This document shows, piece by piece, positions 6,465-59,333 of a stretch of DNA of 64,000 bases (the first letter of the stretch is position 1; each line of letters begins with the position of its first letter). The notes below the pieces were generated by a model, which was given only the letters and a program-made list of their open reading frames with translations, did no database searches and was not told where the DNA came from. This DNA comes from Bacteroidales bacterium. Its GTDB lineage: Bacteria; Bacteroidota; Bacteroidia; Bacteroidales; JAFGUD01. A program made the position numbers and the translations under genes. Location of the stretch: contig JAFGXO010000171.1 in assembly GCA_016936595.1 (NCBI GenBank), forward strand, positions 1,584-65,583, in the 5' to 3' direction.

Positions 6465-7169
6465 CTACATATTTTGGAATTGTTGTCCCCACTCTAATCT
6501 TTTTTTCCGCACTTCGTAAGCTGTTAAAGGTCTGAGTTTTATCAACAAATCGTATGCTTCTTGTAAGTCGTATCCTAAAAACACAAGTAAAGCATAAGTA
6601 ATCATACCGGTTCGGTGTAAGCCGGCAGAACAATGTATATATATTTTATTGCCGGCTGTTAATTCGGATTTAATAATGTTGAATGTTTTTAAAATCAGGG
6701 GTAATAATTCCTTAGAAGGAGGATTTCCATTTTCGAGAGGTAGCCATAACCAATTTATTGACAAAGATTGAAATTCTTGTCCGATTTTTGATGCTCCTTC
6801 TCGTTCAGACAGCAAACTTAAAGCAGTATTAGTTCCTTCGTTTTTTAATGTGTTAAATGTTCCGTTTTTTTTTCCGGGAAGATGCCCGATTTTTAAAAAG
6901 CCTTTATAAATTTTAACCCAATAACTATTTTTATCTGTAATTAGTGGACGTTGCACCAACTTAATTCTCGGTTTTTTTATATCAGGTGCAAAAGTTTTTT
7001 TAAATTTAAATAATTGTCCAATTAGAGGTGCTAATTTTTCTCGTTGAGACGTGTTATTGCTAATTATTTCGCGAAGTTCTTCAATTAAGGCGTCAATTTT
7101 AGCTAAATCCACAACATCATCGAGCTGAATCTTTTTTACTTTTTCAAAAATATCAACCTCATGTTTCAT
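6465..7169 (-). CDS. Cys-based protein phosphatase (dual-specificity / PTP-like, CX5R)
   Basis: 234 aa. The active-site P-loop IHCSAGLHRTG (HCxxGxxR[ST]) lies in the C-terminal half. The N-terminal ~90 aa are unassigned. Confidence 0.8.
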   Translation of the reverse strand: MKHEVDIFEKVKKIQLDDVVDLAKIDALIEELREIISNNTSQREKLAPLIGQLFKFKKTFAPDIKKPRIKLVQRPLITDKNSYWVKIYKGFLKIGHLPGKKNGTFNTLKNEGTNTALSLLSEREGASKIGQEFQSLSINWLWLPLENGNPPSKELLPLILKTFNIIKSELTAGNKIYIHCSAGLHRTGMITYALLVFLGYDLQEAYDLLIKLRPLTAYEVRKKRLEWGQQFQNM

Positions 7170-7211: not shown

Positions 7212-7742
7212 CTACAAGTCTAAGATATAATTTTCGTTATTCAAATCATTGATGTAATTTTGGATAAAATTTGTGAAAGAATTAGCAACGAGTGAACGTT
7301 TTGGACTGTCGTGCAACACACGAATAACTTGTCCATAAATACCGTCGGTATCCGGATCTAAATCAATACAATAATGATTTCCGTAGCCATCGTAAGTAAA
7401 GGGTATCCACATTGGATTCCACCAATTATTTTTTATGCCTTTATCGGGGTTAGAATTTAATTGTTCAAATTTTTTATTATCAAACAATTGTTTCCATATT
7501 TTCCATTCAGCAACAATACGATTTAACGACAAAAGTTCCTCACCATAAATAATATTATCGGTCATTTCGTCTTGACCATTATGAATCATATAAAATTCAA
7601 TAAAATCATCAGGAAATTTTACTTTTAATTTTGCTTCGGCATCGGTTATTTCGTGTTCGCCGGCGGCATAGTTAAAAGTTTCTTCTAAATCAACATCATA
7701 TTGATAAAGTTCATTAAAAAGTTGATCCCATAAGTTTTTCAT
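7212..7742 (-). CDS. SMI1/KNR4 (SUKH-1) family protein
   Basis: 176 aa. AEAKLKVKFPDDFIEFYMIHNGQ...WIPFTYDGYGNHYCIDLDPD...GQVIRVLHDSP is the characteristic SUKH-1 pattern. Confidence 0.85.
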   Translation of the reverse strand: MKNLWDQLFNELYQYDVDLEETFNYAAGEHEITDAEAKLKVKFPDDFIEFYMIHNGQDEMTDNIIYGEELLSLNRIVAEWKIWKQLFDNKKFEQLNSNPDKGIKNNWWNPMWIPFTYDGYGNHYCIDLDPDTDGIYGQVIRVLHDSPKRSLVANSFTNFIQNYINDLNNENYILDL

Positions 7743-7864: not shown

Positions 7865-8989
7865 TTAAATTATTTTTTCAAGATAAGAACTTGTTCCGGT
7901 TTTTAATATTTCTTGGATTACTTTAGCCGTAACATCACCTATTCCGTTAATGCTTGCAATTTGTTTTGGTTGAAGAAATTGTATGTTTTGTTCTATTTTA
8001 GATATTTGATAAGCTGCGTAGCCATATGGATTTTTATGTCCTCGTAATTTTAACAAGTAATCTAAATGCTCAAGAATAACCACAACTAAATCATTTTTAG
8101 AAACAAAACGATAGTATAATTTAGGAGGAATTCGCTTTGGAATTTTAAGATTTGTTGCAATTTTATCAAACAAATAATGAGCAGATTGGTTATAATCTTG
8201 GTGAGCTTCGCCCCATTTACTATTATGTTCGTAAATAATATCAAACTGAGTTGTTAAATCGGAAAAATGTTTATTTATTACGTTCATAAAATAATCTTTT
8301 TGTCGCCCCGGTTTAAGTGTCATTGTTCCAAAAATTACAAAGTCAATACCTACCTCTTTTCCTCTCCGAAGAGTTTCTTCCACCATTTTAGGACTGTCTG
8401 TAATAAATGGGATTAACGGCATTAAAAACATACCAACCGAAATACCGTTTTGTTTAAGCTTTTTAATTAATGTAAATCGTTCAGAAGGGCTTGCTACACC
8501 AGGCTCAAAAATTTTGCTGATATTATCGCTTGCCGACGAAAAACTAAAGCTAACAATTGCTCTGCTTTGATTGTTTATTTTTTTAATGATGTCAATATCT
8601 CGCTCTACGAGAGTTGATTTTGTTAAAATATGTACGGGATATTTGTATTTGTACAAGAGTTCTAATGTTTTACGTGCAAGTTCATATTTTTTTTCTGCCG
8701 GTTGATACGAATCACTAACTCCACCGCCAAGCATCATAAAACTTCGGGGCATGGGTTTTCTCTTTCGTGCCGGATCTAATTCTTTTTGCAAAATTTCAAT
8801 TGCATTTGTTTTTATAGAAATATCTCTGCCAAAATCTCCTTCTACGTAATAACCTTCGGCTCTGCCATCACAATAGGCACAATTATGTGAACAGCCTCTA
8901 TATAAATTTAGCCCGTAATGTGTTAAAAACCAACTTTCAATTTTTTTATTTTTTCTTAGAATTGTTTTTGCTTGTGTTTCGGTTATCAT
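7865..8989 (-). CDS. Radical SAM protein (SPL/PA0069-like) with a C-terminal helix-hairpin-helix
   Basis: 374 aa. It has the CxxxCxxC cluster motif CSHNCAYCDG near the N-terminus and a C-terminal IASINGIGDVTAKVIQEIL HhH-like motif. Confidence 0.8.
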   Translation of the reverse strand: MITETQAKTILRKNKKIESWFLTHYGLNLYRGCSHNCAYCDGRAEGYYVEGDFGRDISIKTNAIEILQKELDPARKRKPMPRSFMMLGGGVSDSYQPAEKKYELARKTLELLYKYKYPVHILTKSTLVERDIDIIKKINNQSRAIVSFSFSSASDNISKIFEPGVASPSERFTLIKKLKQNGISVGMFLMPLIPFITDSPKMVEETLRRGKEVGIDFVIFGTMTLKPGRQKDYFMNVINKHFSDLTTQFDIIYEHNSKWGEAHQDYNQSAHYLFDKIATNLKIPKRIPPKLYYRFVSKNDLVVVILEHLDYLLKLRGHKNPYGYAAYQISKIEQNIQFLQPKQIASINGIGDVTAKVIQEILKTGTSSYLEKII

Positions 8990-8990
8990 C

Positions 8991-9052
8991 TGTTAGGGTT
9001 TTGAGAGTTTCAATTTTCGGGTTTCGGGTTTCGGGGTGCGGGTTTCGGGGTT
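8991..9052. repeat. G-tract intergenic element (TTAGGGTTTT...GGGTTTCGGGTTTCGGGGTGCGGGTTTCGGGG)
   Basis: Five G3-4 runs separated by 3-4-nt loops at 9019-9050, in an otherwise AT-rich spacer. It shares TTAGGGTTT, TTTCGGGTT and TTTCGGGGTG blocks with the element at 17181-17237. Confidence 0.75.
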
Positions 9053-9069
9053 CATATTTTTGTGTCATT

Positions 9070-9897
9070 TTAATAATCGTGTCTGTAGTAAATTCGGTTT
9101 TTGTATTTGTATTTATCAATTTTAAGAATATCCATAACTTTTAATGGTTCATTTTTAACTAAATTTCTGCAGGCTCTATATGCTATCCAATATGAATTTT
9201 TATTGCCGGAATCTGCTAATTTTTGCACAATTTTGTAAACTCTTTCTTTATCAATTCTTGCCCAATCACTTAAATTATTGCCAACAGACGAACGCGGATA
9301 ATCTTTTGATTCTGCAAATAAGTTTTTAATAACTTCAAAACAAAATTCAGGATTTTTTTTCAGCCAACTATTATCAGCAACGGGTCTGATAGATTCGCTT
9401 GCAAACCGCCTTGACATTGGATTATCTGAAGTAACTTGCTTTAAATACCATTTTTTCATTCTATCGGGAAATGTTTTTACAAGTTTACGAACAAAGCCGG
9501 CTGAGCATTCTCTTACTTCCCATTTTTCATCTGTTGCCGCTTGTTCAAAAATTGGTAAAACTTCTTCAATTTTTTTTGTTTCAACGCCATAAATTGAAAT
9601 TATCTGAACGCCAAAACTTCTTACAAATTGCTCAAATTGAATATTTGTATATAAATTAGAAGCAAATTCAAGCACATCTATATCATTTTGTTTAAGCATA
9701 GGATACATTTCAATACCCAATTTTTTAATTATACCATATCTACCGTACGAAATACGCTTTTTTTCAGGAATATCATTTCTAATTATTGAAATAAGTTTGT
9801 CTATTTCAGCTGCAACTTCATCAATAGTCAATACATTTATATGTTTAACTATAGTTTCTGCTAATTTTAAATGAGCTTGATTTATTAGTTGAAACAT
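9070..9897 (-). CDS. HEAT-repeat DNA alkylation repair-like protein (AlkC/AlkD superfamily)
   Basis: 275 aa, all-helical repeat character. DEKWEVRECSAGFVRKL and SSVGNNLSDWARIDKERV resemble conserved blocks of DNA-alkylation-repair (COG4335-type) proteins. The assignment is by memory of motifs only. Confidence 0.55.
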   Translation of the reverse strand: MFQLINQAHLKLAETIVKHINVLTIDEVAAEIDKLISIIRNDIPEKKRISYGRYGIIKKLGIEMYPMLKQNDIDVLEFASNLYTNIQFEQFVRSFGVQIISIYGVETKKIEEVLPIFEQAATDEKWEVRECSAGFVRKLVKTFPDRMKKWYLKQVTSDNPMSRRFASESIRPVADNSWLKKNPEFCFEVIKNLFAESKDYPRSSVGNNLSDWARIDKERVYKIVQKLADSGNKNSYWIAYRACRNLVKNEPLKVMDILKIDKYKYKNRIYYRHDY

Positions 9898-10018: not shown

Positions 10019-12505
10019 TTAATCGTTAACTCTCCAAGCCTTCCAAACATTTTGAATTGCGGGATTAATATTAACGTTAGGAGTTTGGGCTTTAAACCCA
10101 TTTTGAGGATTTAAAGTAGTGGTATTAACCTCATTACTTATTTGATCAAATAATTGACCATAAGTTAAATTACCCTTAGTATTTTGCAAAGTTTTTAACA
10201 AATAATAAGTAAATAAACCGTGCTGTTTATCAATATATTCTTGCGAAATTTCTTTTTCGGAAGAAGCAGCAAAAACCACCAAATTAGAACTAACACTATT
10301 AGCATTTGGCGGACGATATAAACCGGTTTTTGCATTAACTAACAACTGACCACTTTTACCACCACCACTAAAACAAGCATCAACAAAAACAAAAACTTTT
10401 TTGTTTCCATCAGGGCTAATTTGAGCATAAAAATCGCCTAATTTAATTCCAAAAGTTCCTATATAATCAGATTTTACACCAACAGGCACTAAATACGATT
10501 CACCTTGGTCGTCTTGAGTTCCATGACCACTATAATAAACATAAAATTCGCTTCCGTCTGGTTTACTTTTAATAAGTTTTGCAAAATTATCAATATAAAG
10601 TTTAATGTAAGTAGCATTTGCATCTTCGATATAATAAATATGATTAGTATTATCCGGAACGCCCAAAACATTAACGCAATACTGTTTAAAAATTGAAGCA
10701 TCATTTATTGAAAAAAGAATATCAACCATATCGGAGCCATGTTCAATATAATGAGAATTACCAATAATTAGAGCATACCGATTGTTATTTGCAGACCCTG
10801 CTTGAGGTATATTAACATCAACATCGCTCTGGCCAACAACAACTTGAGTGTTATCATCAATTGTTGGATCATTTGTTGGAGCGGGCACAATATTTACAGG
10901 ATCAAAGTTATTAACAACCACTATTGAATTAAAAACAACAGGAATACTTGCATCGTAAAAATATGTTTTATTGTTTACAGGATTAGTTATAGTTGCCTGA
11001 TAAATCTCTAATTTGTCTTCGGACGTTAAATTATATTTCATGTCGGTAAAAGTAAGTTTTGAAAAACTATCTTCAAAAATAGGAGCTTCGTTGATAGGAA
11101 CCGGCACGTACATTGGATTAAAATAAGTTAAAGAAATTTTAAAAACTTCGCTTTCCGAATCATAATCAAGTGTAGAAAGTTTAATATCTTTAATAAAAAT
11201 TGGTTCGCCAATTTGGCCGAAAAAAGTATCGGTAAGTTCAGTTATTTTTTGTTGACGAGTATGGATTGTTACCCTAAGTTGATAATCTTCAAGCTTTTCG
11301 TAGCGTCCTTTTTGTTGCCAATCATTAATTTTATTTTCGATGTAAGTAGTTGCTCTTTCGCGAATAGAAAAGTTCAATTTTACTAACCATAAATCTTTTT
11401 TCCCTGCCCCCCTGGATTTTGTATGTCCAACAACAGCCAAACCACCGTCAAAAGTTTTGGTAAATGCAGTAGCCTTTTCTTCTTCGGAACCACCAAAAGT
11501 ATTTTCCCACAACAAATTACCCATGTTATCTATTCCTAAAATCCAATAGTCCCAATCGCCTGCCCCCGAAGATTTTGTACTTCCGGCAATTAAATACCCG
11601 TCACCATTTGGAATAATGCTACAAAGTTCATCATTTTGTCCACCGCCATAAGTTTTATTCCAAATTTTATTTCCGTTATCATCAATTTTTATAAGCCAAC
11701 CATCAATCCAACCTGCTCCATACGATGAAGTATTCCCTGCAATAAGATAACCTCCGTCGTTAGCTTTTACAACATAAACAGCTTCGTCGCCACCACCGCC
11801 TTCTAATGAGAATTCCCATTTTACTGTGCCGACTGCGTCAATTTTTAAAGCATATAAATCAGCAAATCCATCAACTGTTGCTTGGGAATACCCAACAATT
11901 AAGTATCCATTATCCGAAGTTTGGATAATCTTATTTCCAAAATTCTTATATTGACTTTGATAGGATTTTGTCCATTTTTGAGATCCATTTTTGTCAGTTT
12001 TATACAAATTGATGGAATATTTGTCTTCTACAGAACTTGAATTACCAAGCACCATCATACCTCCATCATTTGTATTTATTACATCTAATCCATAATTACT
12101 CTCATATTGTCCAAAACTTTTATTCCACTGATTACCCAAAGAACTGCTAAATTTTAGTAAAGAGATAGTATTCCCATCAACAGAGTTTGAGAAACCAAGT
12201 GTAGCATATCCATTATCAGAAGTTTGTATAACCGAACAATAATTGGCAATAAAAACTCCTCTTGGCGAATTTTCATTTAAAAGATTTCCTTCAATATCGG
12301 TTTTTATTATCCATGGAAGCCATCCAACTCCAATCGATTGATTTCCACCAATAACTAATTCATAGTTTCTACTTTGAATAATTGATGTTGCCGATTGATT
12401 TTTTTTGTCGCCAAAAGTTTTATCCCACTCAATTTGAAGCGAACTTTGCCCCATAACAAAAAAGGAAGAGAACAATAAAAATAAAAAAAATGATAATTTT
12501 TTCAT
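10019..12505 (-). CDS. Secreted beta-propeller-repeat / caspase (peptidase C14) fusion protein
   Basis: 828 aa. Signal peptide MKKLSFFLFLLFSSFFVMGQ. About 7 degenerate ~45-aa repeats follow (xDGGYLIAGxTxSxGAGxxDxWLIKxDxxGNxxW). The C-terminal caspase fold has RYALIIGNSHY, the His dyad residue in YYSGHGTQ and the Cys in FVDACFSGG. Confidence 0.85.
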   Translation of the reverse strand: MKKLSFFLFLLFSSFFVMGQSSLQIEWDKTFGDKKNQSATSIIQSRNYELVIGGNQSIGVGWLPWIIKTDIEGNLLNENSPRGVFIANYCSVIQTSDNGYATLGFSNSVDGNTISLLKFSSSLGNQWNKSFGQYESNYGLDVINTNDGGMMVLGNSSSVEDKYSINLYKTDKNGSQKWTKSYQSQYKNFGNKIIQTSDNGYLIVGYSQATVDGFADLYALKIDAVGTVKWEFSLEGGGGDEAVYVVKANDGGYLIAGNTSSYGAGWIDGWLIKIDDNGNKIWNKTYGGGQNDELCSIIPNGDGYLIAGSTKSSGAGDWDYWILGIDNMGNLLWENTFGGSEEEKATAFTKTFDGGLAVVGHTKSRGAGKKDLWLVKLNFSIRERATTYIENKINDWQQKGRYEKLEDYQLRVTIHTRQQKITELTDTFFGQIGEPIFIKDIKLSTLDYDSESEVFKISLTYFNPMYVPVPINEAPIFEDSFSKLTFTDMKYNLTSEDKLEIYQATITNPVNNKTYFYDASIPVVFNSIVVVNNFDPVNIVPAPTNDPTIDDNTQVVVGQSDVDVNIPQAGSANNNRYALIIGNSHYIEHGSDMVDILFSINDASIFKQYCVNVLGVPDNTNHIYYIEDANATYIKLYIDNFAKLIKSKPDGSEFYVYYSGHGTQDDQGESYLVPVGVKSDYIGTFGIKLGDFYAQISPDGNKKVFVFVDACFSGGGKSGQLLVNAKTGLYRPPNANSVSSNLVVFAASSEKEISQEYIDKQHGLFTYYLLKTLQNTKGNLTYGQLFDQISNEVNTTTLNPQNGFKAQTPNVNINPAIQNVWKAWRVND

Positions 12506-14161: not shown

Positions 14162-15196
14162 TTACAACTTTTTAATATCATCAACAGATAAGCCTGTTTC
14201 TTTAGATATTTCTTCTACTGGTGTCCCTACTTGTAACATCATTTTTGCCATTTTATTTTGAAATGTATGCTTTTCGTGTTCAGCGTTTTCTTTCTCTTGT
14301 AATGCTTTTTCTTTTTCCTGTTGAGCTTTTTCTTTTTCCTGTTGAGCTTTTTCTTTTTCCTGTTGAGCTTTTTCTTTTTCCTGTTGAGCTTTTTGAACTT
14401 CTGTTATCGCCTTTTCTCTTGCTTTCAAAGCCTCTTCTTCTTTCTTTTGAGCCTCCTTCATTTTTTTTATAGCATCATCAATAGCAGAGCGTTCTATTCT
14501 TATTCTATCCCAATAATTATCATAATAGTCCAACTCGTTTTTTGAAAAAGCTGATACTTGCAAATGTTCCAAAGCTTCTTTTATTTCTTCGTCTGCATTA
14601 AAATCTTCATCAACATTGATAGTATTTTCATTTATCTCGGTTAAAAAACGCAACCACAAATTAGTTATTTTCTTTTCTGTAAATGATTTTGGTGTAAACT
14701 TTGGTAGTTCAATAAATATCAATTCAATACCATCAATTACTTCATTAGGAATTTCTTTATGAGCTAATTTATAATGATGATAAAATTTATCTTTATATTT
14801 TTCCTCTGTAAGATAAATATCATCAACTAAACTAAGCCCATAAACGGGCAGTAATTTATCGTATTTACCTCCTCTATCTAACTGTTTTACATACGCTTTA
14901 CCCGAATTAAAAAGCATACGACTCTTAAATGAATTAGTCCAATACATTTGCATTTCCACAATAAACTGTCGGCCAAAATTGTCTGTGCACTTTACATCTA
15001 CCACTGAATGTTTTAATTCGGGAATTTCAGGCAATAACGCAGGATCTTGATAAATTAAACTTTCAATATACTGGTCATCATTTAATGGCAATAGCGAATT
15101 TAAAAAACTTTTCATTATGTTGGCATTCTGACCAAATATTTTACGAAAAGTTAAATCATTTTTTGGATCTAAATATTTTATATTACGAAAGTCCAT
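14162..15196 (-). CDS. Rpn-family recombination-promoting nuclease / PD-(D/E)XK putative transposase with a C-terminal heptad-repeat tail
   Basis: 344 aa. The N-terminus LDPKNDLTFRKIFGQ and the nuclease core VVDVKCTDNFGRQFIVEMQ are typical of the PDDEXK_2/Rpn family. The C-terminus contains (EKAQQEK)x4. Confidence 0.8.
   Translation of the reverse strand: MDFRNIKYLDPKNDLTFRKIFGQNANIMKSFLNSLLPLNDDQYIESLIYQDPALLPEIPELKHSVVDVKCTDNFGRQFIVEMQMYWTNSFKSRMLFNSGKAYVKQLDRGGKYDKLLPVYGLSLVDDIYLTEEKYKDKFYHHYKLAHKEIPNEVIDGIELIFIELPKFTPKSFTEKKITNLWLRFLTEINENTINVDEDFNADEEIKEALEHLQVSAFSKNELDYYDNYWDRIRIERSAIDDAIKKMKEAQKKEEEALKAREKAITEVQKAQQEKEKAQQEKEKAQQEKEKAQQEKEKALQEKENAEHEKHTFQNKMAKMMLQVGTPVEEISKETGLSVDDIKKL
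14305..14388. repeat. Perfect 21-bp tandem repeat x4 (GCTTTTTCTTTTTCCTGTTGA) inside the Rpn-like CDS
   Basis: Four identical contiguous copies were read directly (14305-14325, -14346, -14367, -14388), plus degenerate flanking copies. They are in frame, 7 codons per unit. Confidence 0.9.
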
Positions 15197-27920: not shown

Positions 27921-28510
27921 TTAGCATTTTTGTTTAAATTTACTCAAAACAGGTTCAAATTTAAATCCGCTAATTTCATCTAACAGTTCAAAACATAATT
28001 TAAACTCTCCTTTGTATCTGTTCAGTTCTACTGCAAAAATTTTCTGGTTATTATCTGTTAAATCTAACAATTCCAAAAGTTTGTTTATATTACTTTTCCA
28101 TAACAAATTATATTTTAATTTTGAAATTATTTTATTTTTGTTTCTCGAAAAATCATAAAATTTCCACAAAAGATGTTGCCTTAAAAAAACTCTTCATCGG
28201 TTGATCTAAAAACTTTTTTTCCAAAGCTTCGGCATACTCTTCGATGGATAAAAAATCAGATTTTTAATAATCATCGTTTATAATATAAATTGATATTTTT
28301 TTATTAATCTACTCTACTTCATTTGTTTTTTCAAGCCAATAAATAGTGCCACATTTTTTGCACTTTATTATTGCTGGATATTCCGGCAACATTGGTGCAC
28401 TTAAATATCAATCGGAATATCTAATTGAACCAAATGTATTACCACTTAATAAGCTTTTTTTAAAAATCCTTTTTTTACATTTAGGACATTCTTAAATTAA
28501 AGCAGGGCAT
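27921..28510 (-). pseudogene. Decayed gene for a small zinc-ribbon protein (multiple in-frame stops and frameshifts)
   Basis: My own reverse-strand translation gives MPCFNLR/(fs)/ECPKCKKRIFKKSLLSGNTFGSIRYSD*YLSAPMLPEYPAIIKCKKCGTIYWLEKTNEVE*INKKISIYIINDDY*KSDFLSIEEYAEALEKKFLDQPMKSFF/(fs)/LRQHLLWKFYDFSRNK...KQKC*. Only the last 82 aa survive as an ORF (27921-28169). Confidence 0.5.
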
Positions 28511-28554
28511 GGTTAAATATTGTTGTTTTTATTTATAAAAAACAGCTACAAAAA

Positions 28555-30867
28555 CTAATTATTAACAATAATAAATTTACTGTTTAAAACGATATGCTTA
28601 TTTGAAAAATCATTTACAACAGCAGAAATAAAATAAATTCCATTAGTAAAATTTGACACATCAATTGATAATATTTCATCTGAATTTTCGAATAACGAAT
28701 AAATAATTTTTCCGTTAATATCATAAATCTTTACACTTTCAATATTGCCTTGAGCAAACTTAGCATTTAAAATATCCGAAACAGGATTTGGAAATAATTG
28801 TAATTCAATATTTGTTGAAATGGTTGAAATATTTGCATTATTATTTGAATATCCTGGGGTTGACGACGAAAAAAACACATAATTTGGGCTTGCATCTGTT
28901 TGGCAGCCAAACGAAACATCAGTATTTTGAGCACCAAACGACAGAGTATCAACAACTAAATACTCATCACCATTTTTTAAGAACACTCCAATTTGTTCAC
29001 CGTCTTTACTTAATTTAAACGAAGCGTGTAAACTACCTTCTTCGGAATCGCTATCAGTCCAAACTAACAAAAATTCGTGTGGTTGCAAATGCATATCGGG
29101 TAAACGCCACATTCCGGCATCCTGCAAATCATCGGTTAAATAAATATCACCCAAAAAAATGGCATCATTTCCATAGTTGTAAAGCTCAAGCCAATCCTCA
29201 AAAATTCCGGATTCATCGGCTATTGTAGAAGAGTTATCTGCCATAAATTCATTGATAACAATAGTTAAATCTGATGCTTGCGGACTTACAACCGTAAAAT
29301 ATCCTTGATACGGCTCACGAGTTACATTTCCGGCATTATCTGTAAATTCATAAAAAAAATCAATTTGCATTACACCACTAAGTTGCTCTGTATTAACAGA
29401 ATAAACATTATCATTTGCTAATGTATCTCCATTATTTCCGGCATCGTTCATGTTTATATTATTCCATGCACCCTCATCTAAACTATAATTAAAAACAGCC
29501 GAAGTAATTGAACCATCATCTTCAACAAAAACTTCGGAGTTAAAAAAAGAATTATTTGTTAAAAAGCCATAATCAACAATTGAAACTATTGGACTAATTG
29601 GTTGCAAATCAAGCTGAGAAAGGGCAGAAATGATTCGTTTAGAGATATAAGGTTTTAAACCTTCTTTAACGTGCATACCAAGAGCTTGGATATAAGAGTT
29701 ATTAAAATCATCAACCGAAAAACCATAGTCGAGAGTTCTAAAATTATCAGCTTCGGCAAAAGGAGTAATCTTCGTTTTTAAGTCATCAATTATCGGATAA
29801 ATTAGAGATGTTTCAAAACTGGTTTCAATAATCAAATTAATATAAAAAGAAAATCTATCCCGATATACATCATTTTGAAGCAATTTATTAGCCAAGGGGC
29901 GATCATTTTCTGCCCAAGTATAAATATTTCTCTCTGTCCAATCTATATTAAACCAATCAATTCCAAAAGTATTATCCATATCGTAAGGAAGATATTCAAA
30001 TCGGTCGGTTGTTGGATTATGATACAAATAATAATTGTTTTGATTAAACGCATAACCGTCCCAATGCCCTGTTAATACTTCAAAAGCCAAAGTTTTAAGA
30101 TACAAATTAACATTAAAAACAGGTTCAAGATTTATTGGGAAGTCATCAACCGGAGTATTATTAAGAATATTAATAAAATTAGCTAAATCAGAATAATCGT
30201 CAACACTTTCATTTGATTTTAATTCATATATACGTCTTCCGTCTCCGTTTGTGAATTTATAATCGTCGGGATTATTACTTATAAACATCAAATTTGAACC
30301 CCAATAACATTTATATAAATTTCCAAACGAACGAGTATATCTTTTATCAAGAAAATTATCGTCAATATTTTCAACACTTATATAAAGTCCGAAATAATTA
30401 TTATTAATATAAACAGCAACATGATTTGCCCGAGCTGCCGGAATATGAATTTGTCGTAAAATATCACTATTTAATTTTGACCTAATTATTGAAGGATCGT
30501 TATGTTCGCCATTTAAATTTAAATTATCCAAATCGTAAAACTCAATATTTTCAAAAGTATTAAAACTTACTCTAAATGATTTTTTTTGAGCATAACGCGA
30601 GGTATTACCTCTTAATCTGAACCCCACTAAATTAAAAGTATCACACACCAAACTACTTGTAAAAATAAAAGTTGCCGGATATTCATGATCACTTTCAAGA
30701 TTTTCGGCGAGATAAAGTTCATCAAGAGAATCTTGGTTTATATAAATATCAATTCGAGGCACATCTTGATCAAAATATACAGGAGTTTGAATTGGAAAAT
30801 ATTGCTGAGATATTACATAAGTAAATAAACCAACCATTAATACAAATAAAAAGACTATTTTTTTCAT
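28555..30867 (-). CDS. CotH kinase-family protein with a lamin-tail domain (LTD) and a T9SS C-terminal sorting domain
   Basis: 770 aa. It has a signal peptide and an N-terminal CotH-like region (FRLRGNTSR, LNGEHNDPSIIRSKL, YLYHNP...EYLPYDMDNTFG). The LTD is VINEFMADNSS...FEDWLELYNYGNDAIFLGDIYLTDD. The C-terminal LQLFPNPVSDIL...VKIYDINGKIIYS...GIYFISAV is a T9SS CTD pattern. Confidence 0.85.
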   Translation of the reverse strand: MKKIVFLFVLMVGLFTYVISQQYFPIQTPVYFDQDVPRIDIYINQDSLDELYLAENLESDHEYPATFIFTSSLVCDTFNLVGFRLRGNTSRYAQKKSFRVSFNTFENIEFYDLDNLNLNGEHNDPSIIRSKLNSDILRQIHIPAARANHVAVYINNNYFGLYISVENIDDNFLDKRYTRSFGNLYKCYWGSNLMFISNNPDDYKFTNGDGRRIYELKSNESVDDYSDLANFINILNNTPVDDFPINLEPVFNVNLYLKTLAFEVLTGHWDGYAFNQNNYYLYHNPTTDRFEYLPYDMDNTFGIDWFNIDWTERNIYTWAENDRPLANKLLQNDVYRDRFSFYINLIIETSFETSLIYPIIDDLKTKITPFAEADNFRTLDYGFSVDDFNNSYIQALGMHVKEGLKPYISKRIISALSQLDLQPISPIVSIVDYGFLTNNSFFNSEVFVEDDGSITSAVFNYSLDEGAWNNINMNDAGNNGDTLANDNVYSVNTEQLSGVMQIDFFYEFTDNAGNVTREPYQGYFTVVSPQASDLTIVINEFMADNSSTIADESGIFEDWLELYNYGNDAIFLGDIYLTDDLQDAGMWRLPDMHLQPHEFLLVWTDSDSEEGSLHASFKLSKDGEQIGVFLKNGDEYLVVDTLSFGAQNTDVSFGCQTDASPNYVFFSSSTPGYSNNNANISTISTNIELQLFPNPVSDILNAKFAQGNIESVKIYDINGKIIYSLFENSDEILSIDVSNFTNGIYFISAVVNDFSNKHIVLNSKFIIVNN

Positions 30868-31104
30868 ACTATTGTTTTTTAAAAAATAAATATTTTTTAA
30901 ATGATTTTTATCAAAATTTGAGCAATAAATAATTCTTTATATGCTTAAAAACAACTATTTTAATTAAATTAATTTTTTAATAATTTAACATTTATTATGC
31001 TCCACTATCTACAAAGATACCATTTTATCTTAAAAAAAATATTTTATTCGTGCAAATAAAAAAAAAATTGCAACTTTGAAGAATTAAGAATCAAATATCG
31101 TATT

Positions 31105-31608
31105 ATGGAAATAAATTTTAAAAATAATTTAGTCCAAAATTTTAATGATGAAAAACTTGTTTTATTTGTAAACAAAAATAATGAGAATTTCACTTTTGCA
31201 ATGAAAATAGCACTTGCAGATGAACAACCTTACGCTTGGAGGGCAACGTGGGTTATTAATCATGCAACAAAAAATAATGACCCAAGACTAACAGAGTACA
31301 TATATTTAATAACAAAAGATTTACAAAAAAAACAAGACGGGCATCAACGAGAATTACTAAAACTCATTGAAAAAATTAAAATTGCAGAAGAAAATGAAGG
31401 CTTAATTTTTGACATTTGTATGACTATTTGGGAAGACGTTGATAAAATTCCTTCGGTAAGAATAATTGCACTTAAAATGTTAGTAAAAATCGTAAAAAAG
31501 TACCCCGAACTAATGAACGAACTAAAATTTATCACTCAAGAACACTACACAGAAACATTATCTCCCGGAATAAAAAATTCAATGAAAAAGATGATGAAAA
31601 ATTTATGA
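31105..31608 (+). CDS. Hypothetical helical protein
   Basis: 167-aa ORF with good coding character and predicted helical/HEAT-like composition. No family recognised. Confidence 0.45.
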   Translation: MEINFKNNLVQNFNDEKLVLFVNKNNENFTFAMKIALADEQPYAWRATWVINHATKNNDPRLTEYIYLITKDLQKKQDGHQRELLKLIEKIKIAEENEGLIFDICMTIWEDVDKIPSVRIIALKMLVKIVKKYPELMNELKFITQEHYTETLSPGIKNSMKKMMKNL

Positions 31609-34897: not shown

Positions 34898-36844
34898 ATG
34901 AAAAAAATTTACACTATTTTTTTATTGCTCTCTTCACTTTTGCTGAATTTACCTCATTTAAATGCACAAGTAGCAGTAAATACCACTGGAGCCGCACCTA
35001 ACTCAAGTGCCATGCTCGACGTTTCGGCAACTAACAAAGGAATACTAATTCCAAGAGTTACTTTAACTGCCGTAAACGATGCAACAACTATCCCCAGCCC
35101 GGCAAACGGTTTAATGGTTTTTCATACAGGAACCGGTTCAATGCAAGAAGGCTTTTATTTTTGGTCATCTACTGATAGCAATTGGAAACTTTTATACAGC
35201 GGTAATGTCCCCTCTGTGCCCGGAAATACAGTATATTGGGTTCGTCCAACCGGAATGCCTTACATACAGCCGGAAGGAAATGACTATATAAGAGTAAACG
35301 ATGCAGGTGAATCATACGGACTTTATTATAATGGAGCAACTAACCAATATGGTATTTTTTCAAGAACAACAGATGGAACAGGTACTACTGCGGCCATAGT
35401 GGGTTTTTCTGATGTTACGGGAAATCAAACGTATGGTTATTTGGGTTATAACGGTACATGGAATCCTCCTGCCTATAGTGGATTCGGAGCAATAAATGGA
35501 GCAGCAGTATATGGTGTGGTTGATGACCCCGGAAGAATTGCAGGTTTTTTTAGAACAACCTCAAACGCAAGCTATGCTGCAAACATTGGTTATTCCGATG
35601 TTTGGATAGCCGGTTATTATTATGCTGATGTAAATAGCACTTCATATAACTCACGTCCAGCTCTTTATGGACAAATGAATGTTTTTGTTGACAAAGCCGG
35701 TTACCAAAACGGAATTAAAGGTATTTCCTTTTACGAAGGTAGCGGTGGCACATCTGGTATTTCAACAGGTGGTTCTTTTATCGGTATTGGATACTCTCAA
35801 AAAGCTGTGGGTTCTTATGGTTATGCTTATGGAGAAACAGCAGGATTAGGTTATTTATATGAACTTTCAAATTCCGTTGGAGCAGTAGGCTTATCTGAAC
35901 ATTCTGGTTTAAATTATCCAGATGCAAGCATGTATCAATTTGGAGTTATTGGACAAAAATACCAGGACTGGTCAGGATCATATGGCTACGATTTAAGAAG
36001 TGGTGGAGTTTTAGGAGTTACTTTTAGAATTGACAATTCCACTATTCAATCGTGGGGGGCTTTGGGTTATAAATCTTCTAGCGGAGTAAATTACGGAGCA
36101 TACTTTGGCACAGGAGGTTCAGGAGCCGGTGGAGGAAAAAAACCAGCTATAGCTCAAAATATTGGTTTTGGTAGCAACTCAGACTTAATGGGAGGATGGG
36201 TATCCGGTGATATTTATGGTTTAGCTGTAAGTGGCGACAGATTTAGCTTATATGTTGATGGACGACAATATAATAACGATGTTATCACTCAATTTTCTAA
36301 TAACGGCTCAGATATTAGAACTTCAACTTATGTTCCAACATCAACGTCAGTTGATATTATTGCAAAAGGTACTGCAATTTTATCCGAAGGAAAAGCTACA
36401 ATAATTTTTGATGAAAATTTCACAAATATTGTGTCTGCTTCTGAACCAATTATTATAACAGTTACTCCTCAAGGAAAAACTCAGGGCGTCTATGTTGATG
36501 CAGTAAAGAACACAGGCTTTATTATTGCAGAAAATAATGACGGAAAATCCTCAACAACAGTAAATTGGATTGCTATTGGAACTAAAAAAGGATATGAAAA
36601 CATTGACGAACCAACAGAATTGATCTCAAATGATTTTGATAATAATTTAAAAAAGGTTATGTTTAATGAAACCTTAACCGGTAGTGCAAGTCCTATTTGG
36701 TGGGATGGACAACAGCTTCGATTTGACGCAATCACAAAAGATATTGATAAATCAATTTTTACTCAACCTGTAAATATTAATAATATCAATGCCACTAAAC
36801 AAAATAATCAACCTAATAATCCAAATAACAATATAAAGAACTAA
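34898..36844 (+). CDS. Secreted Gly/Tyr/Ser-rich protein of unknown function
   Basis: 648 aa. It has a signal peptide and an N-terminal module (VAVNTTGAAPNSSAMLDVSATNKGILIPRVTLTA...PANGLMVFHTG) that recurs in Bacteroidota surface proteins. A long G/Y/S-rich central region follows, and the tail is Asn-rich. Confidence 0.6.
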   Translation: MKKIYTIFLLLSSLLLNLPHLNAQVAVNTTGAAPNSSAMLDVSATNKGILIPRVTLTAVNDATTIPSPANGLMVFHTGTGSMQEGFYFWSSTDSNWKLLYSGNVPSVPGNTVYWVRPTGMPYIQPEGNDYIRVNDAGESYGLYYNGATNQYGIFSRTTDGTGTTAAIVGFSDVTGNQTYGYLGYNGTWNPPAYSGFGAINGAAVYGVVDDPGRIAGFFRTTSNASYAANIGYSDVWIAGYYYADVNSTSYNSRPALYGQMNVFVDKAGYQNGIKGISFYEGSGGTSGISTGGSFIGIGYSQKAVGSYGYAYGETAGLGYLYELSNSVGAVGLSEHSGLNYPDASMYQFGVIGQKYQDWSGSYGYDLRSGGVLGVTFRIDNSTIQSWGALGYKSSSGVNYGAYFGTGGSGAGGGKKPAIAQNIGFGSNSDLMGGWVSGDIYGLAVSGDRFSLYVDGRQYNNDVITQFSNNGSDIRTSTYVPTSTSVDIIAKGTAILSEGKATIIFDENFTNIVSASEPIIITVTPQGKTQGVYVDAVKNTGFIIAENNDGKSSTTVNWIAIGTKKGYENIDEPTELISNDFDNNLKKVMFNETLTGSASPIWWDGQQLRFDAITKDIDKSIFTQPVNINNINATKQNNQPNNPNNNIKN

Positions 36845-55820: not shown

Positions 55821-56336
55821 TTATGTGAAAATTAGTTTAAGTCTTTTTTCATCAATTTTTTCGATATTGATTTTAGTGTTGTATTTTTCGCCTATTTGAG
55901 ATAGTATATTTTTAGCTAATTCAATTAATCCACGTGAGGAGATATAGGTTAAAATTAATTCGTTTTCATTTATCCAATCAAATTCAAAAACAGGAGGTGT
56001 TGCATTTAGCACGCTTTCGGTCATAAAATCGTGAATAGAAGGAATATTTTTTATAAATTCACGGGCTGATGAAAACTGAAAAGAGGGGTAAACCTCAGAA
56101 ATATATGAAAAGATCCAATATTTTGCATATTCAGATAATAGATCATCTTTGGATATATTTAGTACTTGGGCTGAATTTTTTAAAATGCCCATAACTTTAT
56201 CATCAGAAACATCATCTCTTATTAAAAAAACATGATCTTTTTCAAAGCCTGTTCTATAAAGAATTTCTTCCCATTTTTCAACTCCATAAGTTGAGATAAT
56301 CATTCTTTCGGCGGCTTTAACAATGGTTCCTTTCAT
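55821..56336 (-). CDS. Stand-alone H-NOX (haem NO/O2-binding, HNOB) domain protein
   Basis: 171 aa. The N-terminus MKGTIVKAAERMIISTYGVEKWEEIL fits the HNOB opening. Proximal His102 is in PSIHDF (codon 56031-56033), Pro114/115 is in ATPP, and the YxSxR haem-propionate motif is Y131-I-S133-S-R135. Confidence 0.85.
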   Translation of the reverse strand: MKGTIVKAAERMIISTYGVEKWEEILYRTGFEKDHVFLIRDDVSDDKVMGILKNSAQVLNISKDDLLSEYAKYWIFSYISEVYPSFQFSSAREFIKNIPSIHDFMTESVLNATPPVFEFDWINENELILTYISSRGLIELAKNILSQIGEKYNTKINIEKIDEKRLKLIFT

Positions 56337-56339
56337 AGC

Positions 56340-59333
56340 TTAATTATTCATATTTTTTAGTTCTTGAATTTGTTTTTTAAGAATATAAATTTCTGCATCT
56401 TTTTGTTCAAGTAATACATCTAATTTTTCTAATTTTGTTCTAAATTCACGTGCTTTATGTTTATTTTTTTCTGCTTCTGCTTTGTATTGTTTATCTTTAG
56501 AAATTAATTGATTTCGCAAAGTTAAATCCTGAATTAAAGCGTATAAAAACAATTCATCTTTTTGAGTAAATGAAACCAAAGTAACATTTGCAGGGAATTC
56601 GGTTCCGTTACTTTTTTTATGCACCCATTCAAATGAATTAAAACCTTTTTCGATGGCGATATTAATCATTTCTGCAACTTTTTTCATTGAATTTTGACCA
56701 TCGGGCTGAAGTTCAGGAGATACAAATGATGGGGATATTCCAATAAATTCGTCTTTACTTTCAAACTCAAATAGTTCTAAAGTGGCATTGTTACAATCAA
56801 TAAAATTGCCGTTTTTAATTACTTGAATTGAATCAGAAGAATGCTCAAAAAGAAATTTAAATTGTTCGGCTTGATATTCGGCTCTTTTAACCAATTCTTC
56901 ATTTTTTTTGAGTTGCAAATTATTTCTTTCAAGTGATTTTTTTAAAACATCTTCAGAAGCATGAATTTTTTGGGATAATTCCTGAGCAGCTTTTTTCTCT
57001 TTAAGAGCTAAATCAGAAACAGATTGTAATTCATTTATTTTTTTAAGAATTTCTTGTTCTTTAATTTGAAGTTCATTTGTTTGAGTAAGTAATTCTTCTT
57101 GCATTTCAATTTGTTCGGTAATTTCAATAATTATGCTTATAAACTTAATTACCTCACCTGTTTTATCAGTAAAAGGCACAATATACAGCTTGAACCAGAA
57201 TATTTTATTTGTTTTAACAAATTTTAATTGATGTTGAGTTTCTTTGCCTTCAATTAAATCTTGCCATAAATTTAAATCAGCCAGCCTACTTTCTTCATTG
57301 TAATCAAATTCAGATATATGATGTCCAATAATGTCGTTGCTTTCCATCTCAAAAGTTTTATTTAATCTTTCGGGAACCGACACAATGTTACCATCAACAT
57401 CTAACTCAATAATAAATGCGGCTTTATTAATTGCAGAAAGCAGGTTATTAAGCTCAGATTCTCTCTGAGTTGCTCTTTCTTGAGTTGCCTGAAGCTCTTC
57501 AAGGTTTTGCCTTAACTCTTCTTCTTTAAGAGACCGTTGTTCGGCTTCAATTTTTGCCGAATCAAGAAGCTTAACAGTTCGTTGATTTATTTTTGCAATA
57601 GAGATAGTTGAAGCAATTGATTCGGCAATTTTTTCAACAAATACTATTTGATGTTTTTCTAACTTATTAAAAGAAGCAAGCTCGATAACACCCAAAACAT
57701 TTTCTTCAAACTTAAGCGGAACAATAAGCAAACTTCGAGGATTAGCACCACCCAAGCCTGAAGTAATACTGATATAATCTTCGGGTATTTCGGTCATGTA
57801 AATTGTTGCCTTTTCAACAGCACAAGTTCCAATTAACCCTTCTCCCATTAAAAATTCTTTTCTCTTTTTCCTTTCTTTACTATAAGCATAAGAAGCAATT
57901 AATTCAATAATTTTATCTTTATGTTCATCATTTATAATAAACATTCCTCCTTGATTTGCTTCTAAATAATTAACTAAGTCTTTAATAATAAGAGAAGCTA
58001 ATTCAGAAATATCTTTTGTTGATTGACGCAAAACATCTGAGAATTTAGCAATACCGGTATTAACCCACTCTCTAATTTTATCCTCTTCTTTTCTTTTTAC
58101 ATCTTCAATTTGGGCATTTTTCAAATTATCTCTTAAAAGAATAAGAGCATTACCCAGTTCATCTTGGTCGCTAACAGGCGAATAATTATATTTAAAATTA
58201 CCATTACCAATTTCAGAAGCAAACACGGAGGCATCTTTGAGCGATTTTACAACCAGACCAATAGTGTCGGACATTTGTACTAATTCGGAAAAATATTTAG
58301 GCTCAAAAACAAAATCGGGTATTCTACCAGTTTTAAGAGGTTCAATAAATTCTTTCAATTCCTGAATTCTACGAAATAAAATTCGAGGAAGGAAAATATT
58401 AATAAGCATAAAAAACAAGAAAAAAGAAACAGCGAGATATAAAATAAACTTTTTAGTTTCAACTCTTTTTGATGTAACATCTTGAACGATATAATTTACT
58501 GAAGTAATAAATGCGTCTTCAAAAGAATTATTTATATCACTCCATTGCATCATTAAATTGGCTTGGTCGTTCAAAAAGAGTTTTCTGTCGATATTAACTA
58601 ATTTACTGAAAGATTGTTTATAATCATTTACACTTGAAATAAATTCGCTAGAGATGTTATTTGAAACAGGAATAAATTGAGTTGTGTCGATAACACCTGT
58701 ATCTCTAACGATTTGTTGTTGGCGAACGTATGAATTAAGGTACGTAAAATAATCTAAATATTCTTCGTAGCTGTCAAAATTTGGAGAATTAAGATAAGCT
58801 AAGAAATTATTGTTCATTGAATTGAGATAGCGTAGAATTTGTGGATCATTAGTGGAGCTTATTGCAGTTTGATAAAAAGAGAAACAGTTGCCAATTATTC
58901 CGGTTTTTTTAGACCCCCGAAGGAACAGATTATGAGAGATTTGGAAAAAAACATCTTTAATTTGTTCAATATTTTCGGTGTAAAGTTGAATATCATCACC
59001 TAACTCCAATTTTTCGGTAAGCTCCAAGGCTTTTAAAGAATCCATGGTTAATTTTGCATCAGAAAGGATAATTTCTTGTCTTTTAAGGAATTTACTTTGT
59101 TCGGTTTGAAAAAAAACAGGATCGTTTTCGTAATGAATTAAGAAATCTTTTTGGGCTTGCTGTGCTTTAGTCCATTTCAAATAGGCTTTTCTAAATGAAC
59201 TTGAATAATCGATATAATTATATGTTTTTGATACGTCGTCAACGAGTCCGATGAACACTATTAGAAAAAAAACTGACGTAATAGTTAATATAAGAATAAG
59301 AAATAGACGAATACTTATTTTTTTCATGAGCAT
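56340..59333 (-). CDS. Membrane multi-sensor protein: TM, ~270-aa extracytoplasmic domain, TM, HAMP, GAF, coiled coil, PAS, coiled coil, PAS, coiled coil; no recognisable output domain
   Basis: 997 aa. TM1 is LFLILILTITSVFFLIVFIGL and TM2 is FILYLAVSFFLFFMLINIFL. The HAMP-like segment follows. The GAF region is LANQGGMFIIND...GEGLIGTCAVEKATIYM...LIVPLKFEENVLGVIELAS. Two PAS-like segments are present (FIIELDVDGNIVSV... and FKFLFEHSSDSIQVI...FEWVHKKSNGTEFPANV). I found no H-box/HATPase, GGDEF/EAL, MCP or HTH motif. Its stop lies 3 nt before the H-NOX start. Confidence 0.8.
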   Translation of the reverse strand: MLMKKISIRLFLILILTITSVFFLIVFIGLVDDVSKTYNYIDYSSSFRKAYLKWTKAQQAQKDFLIHYENDPVFFQTEQSKFLKRQEIILSDAKLTMDSLKALELTEKLELGDDIQLYTENIEQIKDVFFQISHNLFLRGSKKTGIIGNCFSFYQTAISSTNDPQILRYLNSMNNNFLAYLNSPNFDSYEEYLDYFTYLNSYVRQQQIVRDTGVIDTTQFIPVSNNISSEFISSVNDYKQSFSKLVNIDRKLFLNDQANLMMQWSDINNSFEDAFITSVNYIVQDVTSKRVETKKFILYLAVSFFLFFMLINIFLPRILFRRIQELKEFIEPLKTGRIPDFVFEPKYFSELVQMSDTIGLVVKSLKDASVFASEIGNGNFKYNYSPVSDQDELGNALILLRDNLKNAQIEDVKRKEEDKIREWVNTGIAKFSDVLRQSTKDISELASLIIKDLVNYLEANQGGMFIINDEHKDKIIELIASYAYSKERKKRKEFLMGEGLIGTCAVEKATIYMTEIPEDYISITSGLGGANPRSLLIVPLKFEENVLGVIELASFNKLEKHQIVFVEKIAESIASTISIAKINQRTVKLLDSAKIEAEQRSLKEEELRQNLEELQATQERATQRESELNNLLSAINKAAFIIELDVDGNIVSVPERLNKTFEMESNDIIGHHISEFDYNEESRLADLNLWQDLIEGKETQHQLKFVKTNKIFWFKLYIVPFTDKTGEVIKFISIIIEITEQIEMQEELLTQTNELQIKEQEILKKINELQSVSDLALKEKKAAQELSQKIHASEDVLKKSLERNNLQLKKNEELVKRAEYQAEQFKFLFEHSSDSIQVIKNGNFIDCNNATLELFEFESKDEFIGISPSFVSPELQPDGQNSMKKVAEMINIAIEKGFNSFEWVHKKSNGTEFPANVTLVSFTQKDELFLYALIQDLTLRNQLISKDKQYKAEAEKNKHKAREFRTKLEKLDVLLEQKDAEIYILKKQIQELKNMNN

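Follow-up and report, generated by a model that had tools for sequence, protein, structure and literature searches.

A CotH-family kinase domain combined with a lamin-tail domain and a predicted type IX sorting domain in a protein encoded by a Bacteroidales bacterium

In the current study, a stretch of DNA of 64,000 nucleotides from a Bacteroidales bacterium (assembly GCA_016936595.1, contig JAFGXO010000171.1, positions 1,584 to 65,583; hereafter the window) was analysed with respect to a single complete gene whose product of 770 amino acid residues (aa) combines a CotH atypical kinase domain, an immunoglobulin (Ig)-like domain, a lamin-tail domain (LTD) and a C-terminal sorting domain (CTD) of the type IX secretion system (T9SS) (Table 1). 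An original prediction, made from the sequence alone, had assigned these parts to the gene together with a signal peptide, and the two peptides it quoted from the LTD were located in the product, VINEF at residue 537 and WLELYN at residue 559. The structure of the full-length protein was predicted using AlphaFold from an alignment of the 770-aa protein with 116 full-length relatives (117 sequences), which yielded a model with a mean predicted local distance difference test score (pLDDT) of 91.7 and a predicted template modelling score of 0.79. In this model a hydrophobic helix at residues 2–17 precedes an alpha/beta domain at approximately 35–420, which is followed by beta-sandwiches at residues 427–527, 536–666 and 689–767. 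Searching the six frames of the window with a hidden Markov model (HMM) of the family revealed no CotH, LTD or CTD copies besides those of this gene.

Table 1. Positions in the window of the CotH gene and of the features assigned to its product
Feature	Residues	Position	Strand	Basis
Complete gene for secreted CotH-IgLF-LTD-CTD protein		28555..30867	minus	ATG-to-stop open reading frame, 770 codons + stop
Sec signal peptide, predicted signal peptidase I cleavage between VIS and QQ	1-20	30808..30867	minus	inspection and family comparison
CotH atypical kinase domain	~35-420 (Pfam match 84-390)	29608..30765	minus	profile, PDB search, Foldseek
N-lobe motifs: RLRG, KKS (K95/K96), NGEHNDP (E121, D124), R129	84-129	30481..30618	minus	5jd9 alignment
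Catalytic segment: HWD270G, N278, YD296MD298N	266-302	29962..30072	minus	5jd9 alignment
Ig-like beta-sandwich spacer	427-527	29287..29589	minus	8-strand model of the domain alone
Lamin-tail domain (LTD)	531-666	28870..29277	minus	PF00932 and beta-sandwich in model
Flexible Asn/Ser/Thr-rich linker, likely CTD cleavage region	667-688	28804..28869	minus	low model confidence
T9SS type-A C-terminal sorting domain	689-770	28558..28803	minus	PF18962 and TIGR04183

Profile searches placed the CotH domain, the LTD and the T9SS CTD above their curated cut-offs, in agreement with the original prediction. Concerning the CotH domain, the Pfam profile PF08757 matched with an E-value of 3e-60 and a score of 204.8 bits against a cut-off of 23.8, over positions 2–306 of the 322 that make up the profile. 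Bacillus cereus CotH (5jd9) was recovered from the PDB both by phmmer (E=9e-28) and by the family profile (E=7e-47), and comparison of the model with 5jda/5jd9 using Foldseek gave an E-value of approximately 1e-25, a target template modelling (TM) score of 0.87 and a root-mean-square deviation of 3.7 Å at 26% identity, such that the proposed CotH kinase fold is also recognised at the level of the model. The N-lobe motif residues (RLRG, KKS, NGEHNDP and R129) are the same as those at the aligned positions of B. cereus CotH.

The roles of individual residues were mapped through published work on the Bacillus subtilis protein (PMC7821199) and the 5jd9 alignment, the B. subtilis numbering being transferred by spacing and alignment. 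In B. subtilis, CotH is inactivated by the substitutions D228Q and D251A (PMC7821199). When 5jd9 is aligned, D270 of the HWDG motif and D296 of the YDMD motif are paired with chain residues D224 and D247, which represent the sole conserved Asp pair in that alignment with a spacing of 23 residues, as found between D228 and D251 of B. subtilis. Thirteen residues of the domain (R86, G87, K95, K96, E121, D124, R129, W269, D270, N278, D296, D298 and N299) are invariant in the 117-sequence alignment, and the same thirteen are invariant in a further 84 homologues translated from fetched loci, which represent many families of the Fibrobacteres-Chlorobi-Bacteroidetes (FCB) group. Mean identity is approximately 45% in the 117-sequence alignment and 40–45% across the 117 and 84 sequences, and the aligned sequences span metagenome-assembled genomes (MAGs) from marine, sediment, wastewater and gut sources. 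A lack of catalytic residues had been named, beside a lack of profile support for CotH or the CTD, as a finding that would overturn the original prediction; D270 and D296 are both present and invariant. The possibility of a pseudokinase was consequently rejected at the sequence level, the catalytic-core residues being intact and invariant in both sets: judged by its sequence, the CotH domain is not a pseudokinase because the residues that match the essential aspartates of CotH do not vary.

The region that follows the kinase domain had been described as Ig-like, and this description holds for residues 427–527, which, when modelled on their own, form a sandwich of eight strands (pLDDT 89.6) whose closest folds in the PDB come from the Ig-like domain of peptidylarginine deiminase (PPAD) of Porphyromonas gingivalis (6i0x, 5ak7 and 4ytb; E=4e-5 to 4e-4, TM 0.65). 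A match to the NCBIfam model choice_anch_X was observed within this domain at residues 471–493, although at 23.3 bits it lies below the threshold of 25. A carbohydrate-binding module (CBM) was considered as an identity for this middle domain and rejected, since its similarity to CBM56 is weak (TM 0.47) when set against the clear match to the PPAD Ig-like domain. The LTD was matched by PF00932 with 44.8 bits against a cut-off of 34.3 (residues 531–644, profile positions 3–107 of 109) and is all-beta over residues 536–666 in the model; when this domain was compared on its own with PDB sequences using phmmer, no meaningful match was obtained. No dockerin was matched by Pfam or NCBIfam models at E-values up to 1, and no CBM exceeded its profile threshold in the 770-aa protein.

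Constraint is distributed unevenly among the domains, with a mean pairwise identity of 58% for CotH, 52% for the LTD, 28% for the Ig-like spacer, 26% for the CTD and 22% for the signal peptide. In the LTD, a group of acidic and aromatic residues (N539, E540, D551, E561, D579, W603 and H614) does not vary in the 117-sequence alignment. Since the LTD is conserved nearly to the extent of the kinase domain, with much lower values for the Ig-like spacer and the CTD, these values suggest that the LTD, unlike the spacer, has a functional role, and the overall pattern fits a catalytic domain and a functional LTD that are joined by a spacer and followed by an export tag. Bacterial LTDs have been proposed to guide proteins towards membrane-associated structures, and the activity of the ExeM nuclease was reduced, not abolished, when its LTD was removed (PMC6085458).

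Signals for export were identified at both ends of the protein. The N-terminus consists of MKK followed by the hydrophobic helix, with pLDDT values below 50 at residues 18–21, and comparable signal peptides were present at the N-termini of the relatives inspected. Gln lies directly after the predicted signal peptidase site in 115 of the 117 aligned sequences, the boundary being a conserved Ser/Ala-Gln. An N-terminal Gln preference has been reported for the substrates of Bacteroidota signal peptidase I, and the conservation observed here fits such a preference; on inspection and by comparison within the family, the signal peptide of the original prediction is retained as a predicted feature. 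At the opposite end, the Por_Secre_tail profile PF18962 matched residues 691–753 of 770 with 48.7 bits (cut-off 27) and TIGR04183 matched with 34.4 bits (cut-off 23), while the family profile recovered the solved T9SS CTDs 8glj_D and 8glk_D (E approximately 7e-8), 7pzj, 5uyt and 5jvk. Residues P693, P695, G719, G743 and Y745 of this domain are conserved in the 117-sequence alignment. In the linker that precedes it, pLDDT falls to 63–76 and drops below 50 at residues 681–684, and by analogy with the general processing of T9SS cargo the CTD is likely to be cut off within this segment. We infer that the host is T9SS-competent because of its Bacteroidales taxonomy and the presence of the CTD, and the protein is very probably exported to the cell surface.

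The gene is a typical member of a very large orthologous family that is already annotated automatically. A word-indexed search yielded 3614 proteins with E ≤ 1e-10; among the best 120 of these, 116 are 700–900 aa in length and nearly all carry annotations for CotH, LTD and CTD, and NCBI lists several under the name 'CotH kinase family protein'. An exhaustive search of representatives clustered at 50% identity returned 2403 proteins at E ≤ 1e-30, the best 150 of which are mostly collinear and 740–800 aa long, and relatives were present in at least 491 stretches of GTDB contigs representing one genome per species. The taxa with relatives include Bacteroidales, Rikenellaceae, Lentimicrobiaceae, Marinilabiliales, Saprospiraceae, Lewinellaceae, Flavobacteriales, Chitinophaga, Balneolaceae and Ignavibacteria/Chlorobiota, and full-length relatives derive almost exclusively from T9SS-bearing phyla of the FCB group. 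The labels of the MAGs indicate lineages of Paludibacter, Chryseobacterium and Chitinophaga among those with relatives. The nearest database protein is 89% identical and the nearest genome match, a Bacteroidales MAG, is 64% identical. The family is widespread in T9SS-bearing bacteria of the FCB group, where it is usually encoded by a solitary gene. The Bacteroidales MAG MFD01299.bin.1.197 carries two full-length CotH-LTD-CTD copies on separate contigs (L026 and L027), and so the family is not always single-copy. Five giant relatives (P0122, P0136, P0158, P0159 and P0210) of 1800–2300 aa are matched by the query in 7–11 separate stretches, the best-scoring of which falls in the LTD region, which suggests many tandem LTDs in addition to a CotH domain.

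As regards the host, the closest named relatives are those of Bacteroidales MAGs, the window also encodes a TonB-dependent receptor and 2-oxoacid:ferredoxin oxidoreductase, and sporulation genes were not seen among the open reading frames (ORFs) of the window that were scanned. The original prediction had treated a CotH protein in a non-sporulating member of the Bacteroidota as unusual; the setting was borne out by the current analysis, but the rarity was overstated, as thousands of database proteins share the architecture.

Based on these findings, the reading we favour, to which we assign a probability of roughly 60%, is that the protein belongs to the CotH atypical protein-kinase family as an enzyme which is exported via Sec, sorted by the T9SS and performs extracellular phosphotransfer with its LTD as a targeting module. 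The precursor would cross the inner membrane via Sec and fold in the periplasm, after which the T9SS translocon would recognise the C-terminal domain and this domain would be removed by a cut in the Asn/Ser-rich linker, leaving a mature protein of approximately 650 residues that may be either released or anchored to the surface. A nucleotide would then serve as phosphate donor for the extracellular CotH domain, in which D296 and N278 would bind a divalent metal and D270 would be the putative catalytic base. The acceptor would be a surface or extracellular macromolecule, and Ser/Thr residues of surface or secreted proteins are favoured because the only defined CotH substrates, CotB and CotG, are proteins and by analogy with Fam20C. 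The conserved LTD may act as a targeting or substrate-binding module, and the poorly conserved Ig-like domain may be a spacer, as in T9SS cargo such as PPAD. A more specific and distinctly tentative proposal, which we regard as rather less probable than otherwise, is that T9SS-bearing bacteria possess a conserved surface-anchored 'ecto-kinase', a counterpart of Fam20C, which phosphorylates surface or matrix proteins or glycans and whose LTD captures the substrate or the phosphate donor. In line with the original prediction, published accounts assign no settled role to CotH outside the cell (PMC12484212, PMC12345266).

Several observations weigh against the proposed extracellular phosphotransfer by a T9SS-sorted enzyme. 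Little ATP is available in the periplasm or outside cells, and an ATP-dependent reaction in these locations therefore needs explaining, while the identification of K96 and E121 as a putative ATP-binding Lys-Glu pair is an analogy with protein kinases. A full-text literature search for CotH together with T9SS or 'type IX secretion' returned nothing beyond a fungal paper on an unrelated subject. The approximately 30 ORFs scanned in the window include no gene of the T9SS machinery. Furthermore, when all ORFs within ±10 kb were clustered in 85 loci, with inspection of four contigs in addition, no true partner gene occurred in more than 19 of the 85, and the surroundings of the gene consequently give no hint of a substrate or a donor system. 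The absence of machinery genes from the window would suit a protein that is not T9SS cargo at all, being periplasmic or exported by another route, with the C-terminal beta-sandwich representing another Ig-like module. We consider this very improbable, as both curated type-A CTD models match the C-terminal domain above their cut-offs and this domain occupies the extreme C-terminus after a flexible linker, as the family profile matches experimentally studied T9SS CTDs in the PDB, and as full-length relatives are confined almost entirely to phyla that bear the system.

The scarcity of ATP outside the cell is likewise what would be accommodated by a mainly non-catalytic surface adhesin or binding protein in which the kinase fold serves as a scaffold only. 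Such a role has precedents in the surface CotH proteins of Mucorales, which bind host GRP78 (PMC9973265), and in the plant cell wall binding that has been speculated for cellulosomal CotH (PMC8665504), and the tandem beta-sandwich domains of the present protein do resemble adhesin stalks; the catalytic-core residues, however, are invariant in the 117 and 84 sequences from diverse habitats in spite of the modest overall identity, a pattern which selection on catalysis predicts and a scaffold does not, and we hold this role to be decidedly improbable. It is unlikely, though less so, that the CotH domain is an active phosphotransferase on a non-protein acceptor such as a glycan, capsule, exopolysaccharide or other surface molecule, perhaps using a donor other than free ATP. 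Fam20B, which phosphorylates xylose, provides a model for such an activity. CotH domains are joined elsewhere to carbohydrate-binding or cellulosome modules (PMC6083626, PMC8665504, PMC11601372), and in Streptococcus intermedius a secreted CotH-Fn3 protein is encoded in the Pel locus beside a predicted polyphosphate polymerase, its deletion altering both the level of Pel and aggregation (PMC12345266). In the present family, genes for polysaccharide synthesis or polyphosphate polymerases are not conserved neighbours in the 85 loci, the protein itself has no CBM above threshold, the likeness of its middle domain to CBM56 is far weaker than that to the PPAD Ig-like domain, and the only biochemically defined substrates of CotH are the proteins CotB and CotG (PMC7821199).

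The neighbours of the CotH gene in the window are a divergent gene of 167 aa, ychF, genes for a PKD protein, an AraC-type regulator and a major facilitator superfamily transporter, a decayed small ORF, and others to which no assignment could be given. This arrangement is common only to a close relative on a JGI contig (L001), more distant relatives being found in unrelated surroundings. The most frequent real neighbour cluster, present in 19 of the 85 loci, is a GNAT/methyltransferase gene, and the other recurring clusters (a LytTR response regulator, an aldehyde dehydrogenase and an aldolase) are housekeeping genes or regulators. A conserved neighbourhood as a clue to the substrate was thus rejected as uninformative, because no partner is conserved across the 85 neighbourhoods. 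A link to a Gram-positive-style polyphosphate polymerase and small membrane protein (MgtC-ACT) was also rejected, since neither lies adjacent in the window or appears in the recurrent clusters, and no genes with Ser/Lys/Arg repeats resembling cotG or cotB were found among the neighbours in the window. The second-largest 'neighbour' cluster, with equivalents in 46 of the 85 loci, is an antisense ORF of approximately 113 aa inside the CotH coding region (positions 8727–9077 of the minus strand in locus L003), which is most likely a shadow ORF arising from conservation of the sense frame and not a gene.

The divergent gene (31105–31608, plus strand) has no Pfam match; its product is 62% identical to that of the equally placed gene in L001, and the gene is absent from the other 83 neighbourhoods. 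Directly downstream of the CotH gene, at 27921–28520 on the minus strand, lies an apparently decayed gene with zinc-ribbon-like CPKC...CKKCG motifs, in-frame stops and at least one frameshift, the 3' part of which persists as an ORF of 82 aa (27921..28169). Upstream, a Bacteroidetes-type TAnnTTTG motif occurs at 31012–31019 (minus strand), 145 nucleotides from the CotH gene. It was not counted as promoter evidence because such motifs are no more frequent in this AT-rich window than chance would give (123 against 117 ± 10); sigma-70-type promoter matches were also at chance level (25 against 25.8 ± 5.6).

A number of other genes in the window were noted. A protein of 648 aa encoded at 34898–36844 (plus strand) is rich in Gly, Ser and Tyr and possesses a signal peptide but no Pfam match; a partial homologue is encoded in the syntenic L001, and a PTL_trimer/PKD_6/Fib_succ_major protein of L002 matches it weakly. 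At 6465–7169 (minus strand) a protein of 234 aa is encoded that has a dual-specificity or polymorphic-toxin-type PTP phosphatase domain with the CX5R motif CSAGLHRTG and no signal peptide, and a gene for a SUKH-1 (SMI1/KNR4) protein adjoins it at 7212–7742 (minus strand), 21 kb from the CotH gene and with no evident link to it. The pairing of a phosphatase domain with SUKH-1 is typical of toxin-immunity modules. The gene at 10019–12505 (minus strand) encodes a protein of 828 aa with a C-terminal caspase domain (Peptidase_C14) and no Pfam match in its first 575 or so residues. At 55821–56336 (minus strand), a gene for an H-NOX (haem-NO-binding) protein lies directly downstream of, and nearly abuts, that of a 997-aa GAF/PAS signalling protein (56340–59333, minus strand), and the two probably form a gas-sensing signalling pair. 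A transposase-like gene of the PD-(D/E)XK nuclease family (PF12784) is situated at 14162–15196 (minus strand), with a beta-propeller protein gene on one side and a tRNA methyltransferase gene on the other.

Thousands of bacteria, and fungi as well, possess extracellular CotH-type kinases, for which neither a substrate nor a physiological role has been shown beyond the Bacillus spore coat. If it is true that the T9SS family phosphorylates extracellular targets, this would point to a widespread kind of surface modification in the Bacteroidota, so far unstudied, in gut as well as environmental species, and were the 'ecto-kinase' proposal to hold, extracellular phosphorylation would be a general feature of the surface biology of this phylum. 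The present copy adds little in itself, as it is typical and solitary and its context lacks a hint of the substrate; the difference in constraint between the domains, with a strongly conserved LTD, is a small new point. An invariant catalytic core together with an LTD that is conserved nearly like the kinase domain would be useful features for the testing of a tractable relative.

Secreted CotH proteins are commonly reported in non-sporulating organisms, where the domain is joined to dockerin, Fn3, LTD, CBM or SH3 modules and its function is repeatedly called unknown; further extracellular examples are found in the cellulosomes of bacteria and anaerobic fungi, in a stalk-associated protein of Zetaproteobacteria and among the targets of diversity-generating retroelements in Bacteroides. 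CotH of B. subtilis and B. cereus (5JD9, 5JDA) shares with the Bacteroidales protein the PF08757 domain, the fold, both aspartates and the KKS, NxE and DP motifs. It is, however, a single domain of approximately 360 aa which acts in the ATP-rich mother cell on the coat proteins CotB and CotG, whereas the Bacteroidales protein carries a signal peptide, an Ig-like domain, an LTD and a T9SS sorting domain, belongs to a non-sporulating host and has no cotB- or cotG-like neighbour. The cellulosomal proteins of Clostridium thermocellum, CseP/Cthe_0044 (CotH with dockerin) and Cthe_0239 (LTD-LTD-Fn3-CotH with dockerin), are extracellular CotH proteins displayed at the surface via a C-terminal targeting module, as is predicted here, and Cthe_0239 likewise combines CotH with LTDs (PMC6083626). 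These proteins rely on dockerin-cohesin targeting to a Gram-positive cellulosome, in contrast to the T9SS CTD and the lack of a dockerin found here, and the domain order differs in that the LTDs precede CotH in Cthe_0239, and the function of cellulosomal CotH has been described as unknown (PMC12484212). SIR_1594 of the non-sporulating S. intermedius is also a secreted CotH protein in which a beta-sandwich domain follows, and its mechanism was left unassigned by its authors (PMC12345266); its gene forms part of a conserved trio with those of a predicted polyphosphate polymerase and an MgtC/ACT membrane protein in a polysaccharide operon, unlike the solitary gene of the current study.

By analogy, the animal Fam20C-type kinases would resemble the Bacteroidales protein in their atypical kinase fold, their signal peptide and their secreted or extracellular substrates, the last of these being a proposal in our case. 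The Golgi lumen, where Fam20C is active, imports ATP, and the bacterial cell surface is not known to have a comparable supply. PDB searches gave no sequence-level match to Fam20C, to which CotH has been described as distantly related (PMC7821199). With respect to overall construction, the T9SS cargo proteins PPAD and gingipain RgpB of P. gingivalis are alike in their order of signal peptide, catalytic domain, Ig-like domain and type-A CTD, the family profile matching the RgpB CTD (5hfs) weakly at E=0.57. They differ from the present protein in bearing a deiminase domain (PPAD) or a protease domain (RgpB) in place of the kinase fold, and the Bacteroidales protein possesses in addition the conserved LTD between its Ig-like domain and its CTD.

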